This document shows positions 12,651 through 13,801 of a stretch of 60,862 nucleotides of DNA, piece by piece. Source of the DNA: Bacillus phage vB_BspP_Dartukuta; the sequence record MW749009.1. One strand, 5' to 3'. Position 1 is the stretch's first letter; every line of letters starts with the position of its first letter. The position numbers and the translations under genes are program-made. The notes beneath the pieces are model-generated. The model saw only the letters and a list, made by a program, of their open reading frames with translations. It was not told the DNA's origin and ran no database searches.

Positions 12651-12818
12651 ATGAAGAAAGAAAAAAACGAAAACAAGAGTCGAGCAGAGGTAGAGGAATC
12701 TTCAGCTCGCAAAGCTTCGCTTCTCTATGACGAGGATCCAGCCACGCTGCTTGCCAGGTTTGGCATACAAGTCCCTCCCGCAAGCAAAGAGGCAAACCAG
12801 AAATGCAATACACAGTAA
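12651..12818 (+). CDS. Small ORF (55 aa), hypothetical
   Basis: Below the track cutoff; MKKEKNENKSRAEVEESSARK...; overlaps the start of the replication gene. Coding status uncertain. Confidence 0.3.
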   Translation: MKKEKNENKSRAEVEESSARKASLLYDEDPATLLARFGIQVPPASKEANQKCNTQ

Positions 12819-13801
12819 GCATCAATCAAGTTAAGGCGCTGGAGTGGGGATTGAATGCCCAGCAGGCGCTACTGTTTGCATTTATCTATGAGTGCCCAAG
12901 CTGGGCTAACCCGATTGAGTCTATAAACGGCACCTTTTATGCTGTAAGTAAGCAAAAAATCACTGAAGAGCTGCCCCTTTTAACTGACAAACCAGACACT
13001 GCTTACAGGCTTTTGAAGCAATTACAGACGGCTGGTTTAATTGAGCTATCCAGCACATCAAAAATCACTCTTGTGCGACTGACTGAAAAAGCTAAGTGCT
13101 GGAATAAAAAGCATGATGGGTCGGAAATTTATCCGAAGAAGAAGCGCGGAAATAAATCCGAGGTCGGAAATAAATCCGATGTAGGTCGGAAAAATATCCG
13201 CGGTGAGGTCGGAAAAATATCCGAGCTAAGGTCGGAAAAATCTCCGACAAATCAGTATACCAGTAATCAGAGTACCAATAATCAGGATACCAGTCAGAGT
13301 TTAGCGACCGAGGTTGCTACCGCATCCACGGCCACCACGGAAATTGAAATCACCTCTTCACCTGGTCAGCCCAAGGTTGAGATTCCGGCTGACATGCCAG
13401 GGCCTAAAGATCCAAAAGCAAAAACCTACCGCGTATGGGCCAACTACGCATTCGCATTCCGCAAGCGGTACAACGTCTGGCCGGTATGGAATGCACGCAC
13501 AGCAGGGCAGCTTGCCCAGTTGGTTGACAGGCTTGGTCAAGACGCAGCACCCAAGGTGGCGGCGTACTACCTCACGATTGCCGATGCACGACTAATCACT
13601 GAGCAGCACAGCGTCAACTTGCTACTGGCAAGAGCTGAGGCGCTGCACACGCAGTGGGCAACAGGTCGCCGCGTCAACAGCACGACCGCACGTCAGCAAG
13701 AACGCACAGCGGCAAACTTTGAAGCCGCGCAAACAGCCGCTAAAAACATTCTTAATAAATCAGAGAGGTCGATCTATGACAATCCATTCTACAAGCCGTG
13801 A
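12803..13801 (+). CDS. Replication initiator (lambda O-like) with origin iterons inside the gene
   Basis: Position after cro; four direct repeats (GGTCGGAAAAAT cores) inside the gene, seen as the peptide repeat SEVGNKSDVGRKNIRGEVGKISELRSEKS. Protein family not verified. Confidence 0.55.
   Translation: MQYTVSINQVKALEWGLNAQQALLFAFIYECPSWANPIESINGTFYAVSKQKITEELPLLTDKPDTAYRLLKQLQTAGLIELSSTSKITLVRLTEKAKCWNKKHDGSEIYPKKKRGNKSEVGNKSDVGRKNIRGEVGKISELRSEKSPTNQYTSNQSTNNQDTSQSLATEVATASTATTEIEITSSPGQPKVEIPADMPGPKDPKAKTYRVWANYAFAFRKRYNVWPVWNARTAGQLAQLVDRLGQDAAPKVAAYYLTIADARLITEQHSVNLLLARAEALHTQWATGRRVNSTTARQQERTAANFEAAQTAAKNILNKSERSIYDNPFYKP
13156..13248 (+). repeat. Iteron array (4 direct repeats, 18-23 bp period) followed by AT-rich TACCAnTAATCAG repeats
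   Basis: Units ATCCG-n-GGTCGGAAA(A)AT begin at 13156, 13174, 13196 and 13219; TACCAGTAATCAG-like repeats follow at 13249..13300. Confidence 0.6.

Follow-up and report, generated by a model that had tools for sequence, protein, structure and literature searches.

A probable replication origin inside the initiator gene of Bacillus phage vB_BspP_Dartukuta

Introduction

The DNA of Bacillus phage vB_BspP_Dartukuta (sequence record MW749009.1; the whole stretch of 60,862 bp that was analysed is called the window) raises the question of where the phage starts its replication, and whether the start site lies within a single gene. The gene is located at 12803-13801 on the plus strand, encodes a protein of 332 amino acids (aa) and occupies the position of lambda O. 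A preliminary description, prepared from the letters of the sequence, regarded it as a replication initiator gene that contains its own iterons and an AT-rich repeat tract, in the manner of lambda O and its origin. For lambda, such an intragenic origin has belonged to textbook knowledge from the late 1970s onwards, and the present case adds no new principle. From the comparisons described below, the segment 13119-13294 is very probably the vegetative (theta-type) origin of a temperate phage, situated inside the gene of its own initiator. The probable origin of the phage is placed in this way within about 180 bp and, by extension, so is that of the large F116-type family of Pseudomonas phages and prophages.

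The iteron array

Six dyad-symmetric repeats of 18 bp, with the consensus GGTCGGAAAaATATCCGA, are found inside the initiator open reading frame (ORF) at 13119-13247. On the plus strand these are iteron 1 (13119-13136, GGTCGGAAATTTATCCGA), the degenerate iteron 2 (13144-13161, GCGCGGAAATAAATCCGA), iteron 3 (13162-13179, GGTCGGAAATAAATCCGA), iteron 4 (13184-13201, GGTCGGAAAAATATCCGC), iteron 5 (13207-13224, GGTCGGAAAAATATCCGA), which matches the consensus exactly, and iteron 6 (13230-13247, GGTCGGAAAAATCTCCGA). Four repeats at 13156-13248 had been reported previously; they are real and correspond to units 3-6, but the span given for them missed the two upstream copies, units 1 and 2. Each unit has the form (T/G)CGGA-N6-TCCG(A/C) with an A-rich centre. 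The start-to-start spacing is 25, 18, 22, 23 and 23 bp, or about two helical turns, and 24 of the 34 intervals among 41 units from seven genes measure 22-23 bp.

The array is unique in the window. Searched with up to three mismatches, the consensus GGTCGGAAAWATATCCGA has six sites in the 60,862 bp, all of them in the array; shuffled sequences searched in the same way yielded a mean of 0.05 sites, and none of 100 reached six. Two copies of CGGA-N6-8-TCCG never fell within 150 bp of each other in 200 dinucleotide shuffles. In Tandem Repeats Finder, no other tandem repeat of the 60.9-kb window scores as high as the array, and neither the consensus search nor the tandem-repeat search detected a second iteron-like cluster elsewhere in it. 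Two 'terminator-like' matches on the minus strand (13236-13220 and 13190-13175), produced by a promoter and terminator scan, were dismissed as by-products of neighbouring iteron halves.

The 15-mer tract

The iterons are followed on the plus strand by three tandem, in-frame 15-mers, AATCAGnnTACCAnT, at 13250-13294, which are presumed to be the DNA-unwinding element. The second repeat set that had been noticed behind the iterons (13249-13300) is thereby resolved into 3 x 15 bp. The 15-mers encode NQYTS, NQSTN and NQDTS, and their third-codon-position identity to relatives is 0.94. The tract contains 36% GC, compared with 50% GC for the window, and its stability is in the lowest 0.7-0.9% for the window. 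Its earlier designation as AT-rich is accurate to a moderate degree: the AT content peaks at 68% in 40 bp, whereas the lambda tract attains 78%. When the least stable 45 bp of each gene was determined, with the gene ends excluded, it was found to start at most 11 nt from the last iteron in all seven genes of the same type (49-60% GC). The same procedure applied to lambda O recovered its known AT-rich region.

Conservation at the DNA level

The gene was aligned by codons with five relatives (Medea1, phiAH14a and three metagenomic loci; 57-70% protein identity). Nucleotide identity is highest over 13205-13294, at 0.87-0.91, compared with 0.57-0.77 for the folded domains; it falls to 0.29-0.37 in the 70 nt that follow the repeats, and it exceeds amino-acid identity over the repeat region. 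Third-codon-position identity is 0.95 at 13205-13294, as against 0.44 in the N-terminal and 0.47 in the C-terminal domain, and identical residues are specified by identical codons in 97% of cases in the repeats versus 44-48% in the domains. Units 1-6 start in reading frames 0, 1, 1, 2, 1 and 0, with spacings that are not multiples of three, and encode different peptides (SEIYPK, RGNKSE, VGNKSD, GRKNIR, VGKISE and SEKSPT). A megablast search with 12300-14700 against 50,697 phage records returned matches to 13162-13297 only. These comparisons indicate that selection acts on the repeats as DNA, not as protein.

Co-variation with the N-terminal domain

The N-terminal domain of the initiator is shared, at 72-78% identity, with the Pseudomonas phages Medea1, phiAH14a and F116 and with four further loci (L008-L011). 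The CGGA-N6-TCCG motif is present in all seven, in 5-8 copies at a constant position in the gene, and is followed by the same 15-mers. The preliminary description had considered that the repeats might be absent from homologous initiator genes; the opposite was found, since 7/7 homologues carry them at the same position. In ten other loci the C-terminal domain alone is shared (43-90% identity); they belong to four other N-domain classes, and the motif occurs in none of them. At least nine of these ten have repeats of their own at the equivalent place, mostly dyad-symmetric and spaced by 17-23 bp, and most also have their own short tandem tract after the repeats. The weak cases are phage 8P, in which the repeat finder detected no clear iterons, and Parlo, which has other short repeats and no clear iterons; inspection by eye shows degenerate repeats, at about 22-23 bp, in both. 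Ralstonia phage GP4 possesses only a different 18-bp tandem repeat.

Locus L005 is 90% identical to the window in the C-terminal domain and about 80% identical at the DNA level in the downstream genes, but differs in N-terminal domain, iterons and tract alike. Its similarity to the window begins abruptly at 13367, and that of L006 and L007 at 13371. These breakpoints, together with the joint switching, define the unit of exchange as 12803-13366, comprising reader domain, sites and tract. A scan of viral contigs with the full protein retrieved only three loci, all of them sharing the C-terminal domain alone, and these served as natural domain swaps. N-terminal domain, iterons and tract thus form an exchangeable cassette that ends near 13367. 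If it behaves like its lambdoid O counterpart, the cassette is expected to set replication specificity and the incompatibility of co-resident prophages, and the region could provide a minimal replicon for the construction of vectors.

The tracts that follow the iterons in other loci were likewise observed to be of discrete sequence types (L005, L006, L013 and L014; L004, L007, L015 and L018). At least three types are distinguished, namely the 15-mer AATCAGnnTACCAnT, a 12-mer with ACAGAGAyTAC, and 12-mers with GAACC. The ACAGAGAyTAC 12-mers are common to N-domain classes C and D despite their different iterons; class B retains GAACC repeats at 36-46% N-domain identity, and the GAACC 12-mers run across the HTH_36 class. 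The type of tract is inherited with the N-domain class and is evolutionarily more stable than the iterons themselves. That the tract is a conserved tandem repeat of discrete types, and more than an AT-rich spacer, is the least expected detail of the locus, and the existence of such types suggests a sequence-specific role beyond AT-richness. There are precedents for the reading of single-stranded DNA, in Rep proteins that act on the 13-mers of plasmids and in the DnaA-trios. We put forward tentatively that the tract might be a sequence-specific element of in-frame tandem repeats, perhaps recognized in single-stranded form by the initiator or the product of the gene behind it (the partner, a member of phrog_6028), in which case the partner could be a new kind of helicase recruiter.

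The initiator protein

The assignment of 12803-13801 as a replication initiator gene was borne out by protein profiles. The protein matches PHROG 11527 over the full length of the profile (E 9.9e-151, aa 1-320) and phrog_391, 'replication initiation O-like', at 2.6e-13 over aa 100-312. NCBI gives the name 'phage replication protein' to its homologues in many genomes of Pseudomonas, and among its 1275 database relatives those with a named source are mostly from Pseudomonas. The protein has no Pfam match at E <= 0.01, and the N-terminal domain searched by itself has none at E <= 1; a search of NCBIfam gave nothing meaningful, and a sequence search of the PDB gave no match.

The AlphaFold (AF2) model comprises two folded parts and a linker. 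The N-terminal domain (aa 1-105, encoded by 12803-13117 on the plus strand) is predicted to be winged-helix-like, with a predicted local distance difference test score (pLDDT) of 65-85, and is presumed to be the DNA-binding domain that reads the iterons. Residues 113-190 are predicted to be disordered (pLDDT about 30). Iterons and 15-mers together encode aa 106-164, with iteron unit 1 overlapping the end of the N-terminal domain, and the repeats are therefore located mostly in the predicted disordered linker. The remainder of the linker-coding sequence (13295-13366, plus strand) is variable and unconserved, with identities to the relatives of 0.29-0.37 for nucleotides and 0.11-0.20 for amino acids. 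The C-terminal domain (13367-13798, plus strand), which has the mosaic breakpoint at its 5' edge, is helical over aa 209-319 in the model and is presumed to recruit the replisome.

Comparison with known systems

The likeness to lambda that had been proposed extends to every architectural feature that can be tested in sequence: iterons, conservation at the DNA level, co-variation, a least-stable tract, a linker and the order of the genes. In both phages the iterons, about 18-19 bp long and dyad-symmetric around a central A-tract, lie in the middle of the initiator gene, an AT-rich tract follows them directly, and the region encodes an inter-domain linker. The iteron spacing is 20, 24 and 23 bp in lambda and 18-25 bp here, and the relative position in the gene is 0.39-0.48 for the annotated lambda ori and 0.32-0.49 here. 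An overlapping partner gene and ninB follow the initiator gene in both cases, all downstream of cI and cro. The lambda origin has been described as iterons plus an AT-rich tract in mid-O, with four iterons in lambda and six in Stx phages (PMC7466680); a copy number that varies in this way is also seen in the present family, with 5-8 copies.

The likeness does not extend to homology of the N-terminal domain, for which none was detected, nor to the downstream gene, which is not lambda P. The initiator lacks the Pfam Phage_rep_O match, the iteron sequence is unrelated to that of lambda, and the tract consists of 15-bp tandem repeats with 64-68% AT in place of an A-rich run with 78%. The C-terminal halves of both proteins match phrog_391 (lambda O at 2.7e-39 over aa 140-292, the window protein at 2.6e-13), but a direct comparison of profiles was non-significant. 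Neither BLASTP nor hhalign gave significant similarity to lambda O. Judged by its architecture, the initiator would work like lambda O, while in its DNA-binding domain it is not demonstrably a member of the lambda O family, to which Pfam Phage_rep_O and phrog_277 correspond.

A second resemblance is to the RepA_N initiators (RepA of the staphylococcal plasmids pSK41 and pTZ2162, and of Vibrio PLE). In RepA_N plasmids, too, the origin is located inside the rep gene. The iterons of that group are semi-palindromic direct repeats with inverted halves that converge on a poly-A tract (bioRxiv 10.1101/639039), a form to which TCGGA-AAAATA-TCCGA of the present array corresponds; the structures 4PTA and 4PT7 are of staphylococcal RepA (10.1101/639039). 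The initiator differs in having no match to Pfam RepA_N (PF06970) even at E <= 1, and its C-terminal domain and gene context are those of a lambdoid phage rather than of a plasmid.

Closer at hand, repeats were reported within the O-like gene of Pseudomonas phage MD8 (PMC8508860), a relative in the C-terminal domain. MD8, PseuP_222 and Riah share 44-62% identity with the window in this domain and have intragenic repeats in the same position, but they carry an N-terminal domain of the HTH_36 class, iterons of the form TGCA-N-TGCA and a tract of GAACC 12-mers. The sequence record of MD8 labels the downstream gene 'replication protein P'.

The family to which the initiator itself belongs is the F116 type (F116, H66, Medea1 and phiAH14a; PHROG 11527), with which it has the iteron consensus, the 15-mers and the partner gene in common. 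Identity to the proteins of F116, Medea1 and phiAH14a is 57-59% over the full length. The window phage differs in having about 50% GC, whereas the Pseudomonas loci have 57-61%, and in other respects the relationship is only a distant one. No description of iterons for the F116-type family or Hollowayvirus was found in the searchable literature, which did not include the 2005 F116 genome paper, and the papers on phiAH14a (PMC4936722) and PseuP_222 (PMC10305613) make no mention of repeats. Initiators of this type are often annotated merely as 'hypothetical', 'PadR regulator' or 'primosomal protein I'. In F116 (NC_006552, 2501-3517) RefSeq splits the initiator gene into F116p31 and F116p32, two short genes labelled 'hypothetical', with no annotation for the N-terminal part. 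The frame is continuous in this phage, with 338 aa and eight iterons, and the split is probably a mis-annotation.

Proposed function and alternative explanations

We infer a sequence of iteron binding, unwinding, helicase recruitment and origin firing. Dimers of the N-terminal domain would bind the six iterons and give a wrapped or bent nucleoprotein complex, the strain of which would open the adjacent, least-stable 15-mer tract. The C-terminal domain, together with the product of 13776-14594, would then bring in the host replicative helicase. Rightward early transcription from a cro-side promoter would traverse the origin, as in lambda.

Several observations weigh against an origin at this place. 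The tract is only 64-68% AT and so weaker than the 78% of lambda, and at a resolution of 30-45 bp the 3' end of the gene (13730-13799) is slightly less stable. The relatives that were compared are not phylogenetically independent, although the control regions were taken from the same sequences. No DnaA box, IHF site or GATC cluster is present in or beside the proposed origin. The partner has no recognizable signature of a helicase loader, and no phage helicase was identified beside it. Cumulative GC skew, which had been suggested as a check, does have its minimum at about 12-14 kb, but the genes change from leftward to rightward at the same place, between divergent transcription units, and the minimum is therefore given no weight as independent evidence.

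Three other explanations of the repeats were considered. The iterons could be initiator sites used for control (autoregulation by roadblock, titration, handcuffing and incompatibility, or exclusion of related phages), with replication starting elsewhere. Co-variation with the N-terminal domain shows only that the initiator reads the iterons, not that the DNA is opened there; plasmid iterons have control functions (PMC4980987), and lambdoid phages are inhibited by extra copies of the lambda ori (PMC3349717 and PMC4488673). Yet the window has no other iteron-like cluster, lambda and the iteron plasmids use the same sites for control and for initiation, and a conserved, least-stable tract constrained at its synonymous sites abuts the last iteron in every relative, which is the appearance expected of an unwinding element and for which pure titration provides no role. 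Control without initiation is therefore considered unlikely. Still less probable is that the repeats serve another factor, be it a host protein, a protein of partition or packaging, or a recombinase responsible for the exchange of modules at this junction. The region is a mosaic junction, but 72 nt separate the repeats from the breakpoint at 13367, which is downstream of them and not inside them, the motif tracks the N-terminal domain of this gene over 17 loci and no neighbouring gene, and neither a DnaA nor an IHF consensus is present.

It could also be argued that the repeats have no function as DNA and represent a low-complexity linker or the outcome of replication slippage. In favour of this are the predicted disorder of the linker encoded by the region, a copy number that differs between relatives (5 to 8), and the in-frame 15-mers, which are translated into repeated NQxTS peptides. 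The iterons, however, are read in three frames as different peptides, their synonymous sites are 95% conserved compared with 44-47% in the folded domains, and nucleotide identity is above amino-acid identity in the repeats while the remaining part of the linker (13295-13366) shows no conservation. By frames, identities and synonymous sites this explanation is already largely refuted, and it is hardly credible.

Gene neighbourhood and other features

The genes are arranged in the order cI-like, Cro-like, a 55-aa ORF, initiator, partner, NinB, YbcO and RusA, and the locus is a lambdoid early-right operon. The cI-like repressor (11639-12277, minus strand) contains HTH_3 and Peptidase_S24 domains. 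The Cro-like regulator gene (12380-12577, plus strand) is at the start of the rightward early operon, which reads through the proposed origin. The overlapping partner gene (13776-14594, plus strand, 272 aa) takes the position of lambda P and belongs to phrog_6028, for which the function is not known; in related loci it always follows the C-terminal domain of the initiator. The NinB/Orf recombination mediator is encoded at 14591-15052 on the plus strand.

The AF2 model of the partner is confident and all-helical, with a pLDDT of 82. Foldseek found nothing below E 0.7 for this model, the match to the lambda P fold being non-significant at E 0.77. The protein has no Pfam, NCBIfam or significant PDB match, and its PDB profile matches are at the level of chance (E >= 0.25). 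Its identification as lambda P was rejected, as neither BLASTP nor hhalign gave significant similarity and as it falls in phrog_6028 rather than in phrog_109, the family of P-like loaders. The partner is presumed to recruit the helicase and may be a helicase-recruitment factor of a kind not yet described.

Other features were observed in the window away from the initiator gene. The virion genes include a portal of the P22 type. A single ORF of 4203 aa (42617-55228, plus strand) encodes a 'polyvalent protein' and takes up one fifth of the phage genome; its domains are ddrB-ParB, inorganic pyrophosphatase (PF18823), LPD5, LPD1, LPD23, GNAT, ADP-ribosyltransferase (ART-PolyVal) and LPD38. A protein of 534 aa (5914-7518, minus strand) combines an N-terminal YqaJ-like recombination exonuclease with a C-terminal domain resembling the RecBCD inhibitor gp5.9 of T7 (aa 491-528, PF25708, E 5e-17). 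At 59445-60542 on the minus strand, near the right end of the window, a TnpB/Cas12f-like protein with OrfB_IS605 and TNB domains is encoded, which may represent an insertion of the IS200/IS605 type in or beside the phage. A tyrosine integrase ORF (3-1205, plus strand) is located at the extreme left end. The early-left region contains a gene for a global regulator of the CsrA/RsmA family (10703-10876, minus strand, 57 aa, PF02599, E 6e-25), and CsrA-like genes are present also in the related phages 8P and Epa33. A tRNA-Arg(TCT) gene at 9883-9959 on the minus strand is located inside the same region, upstream of both the CsrA gene and the repressor gene.
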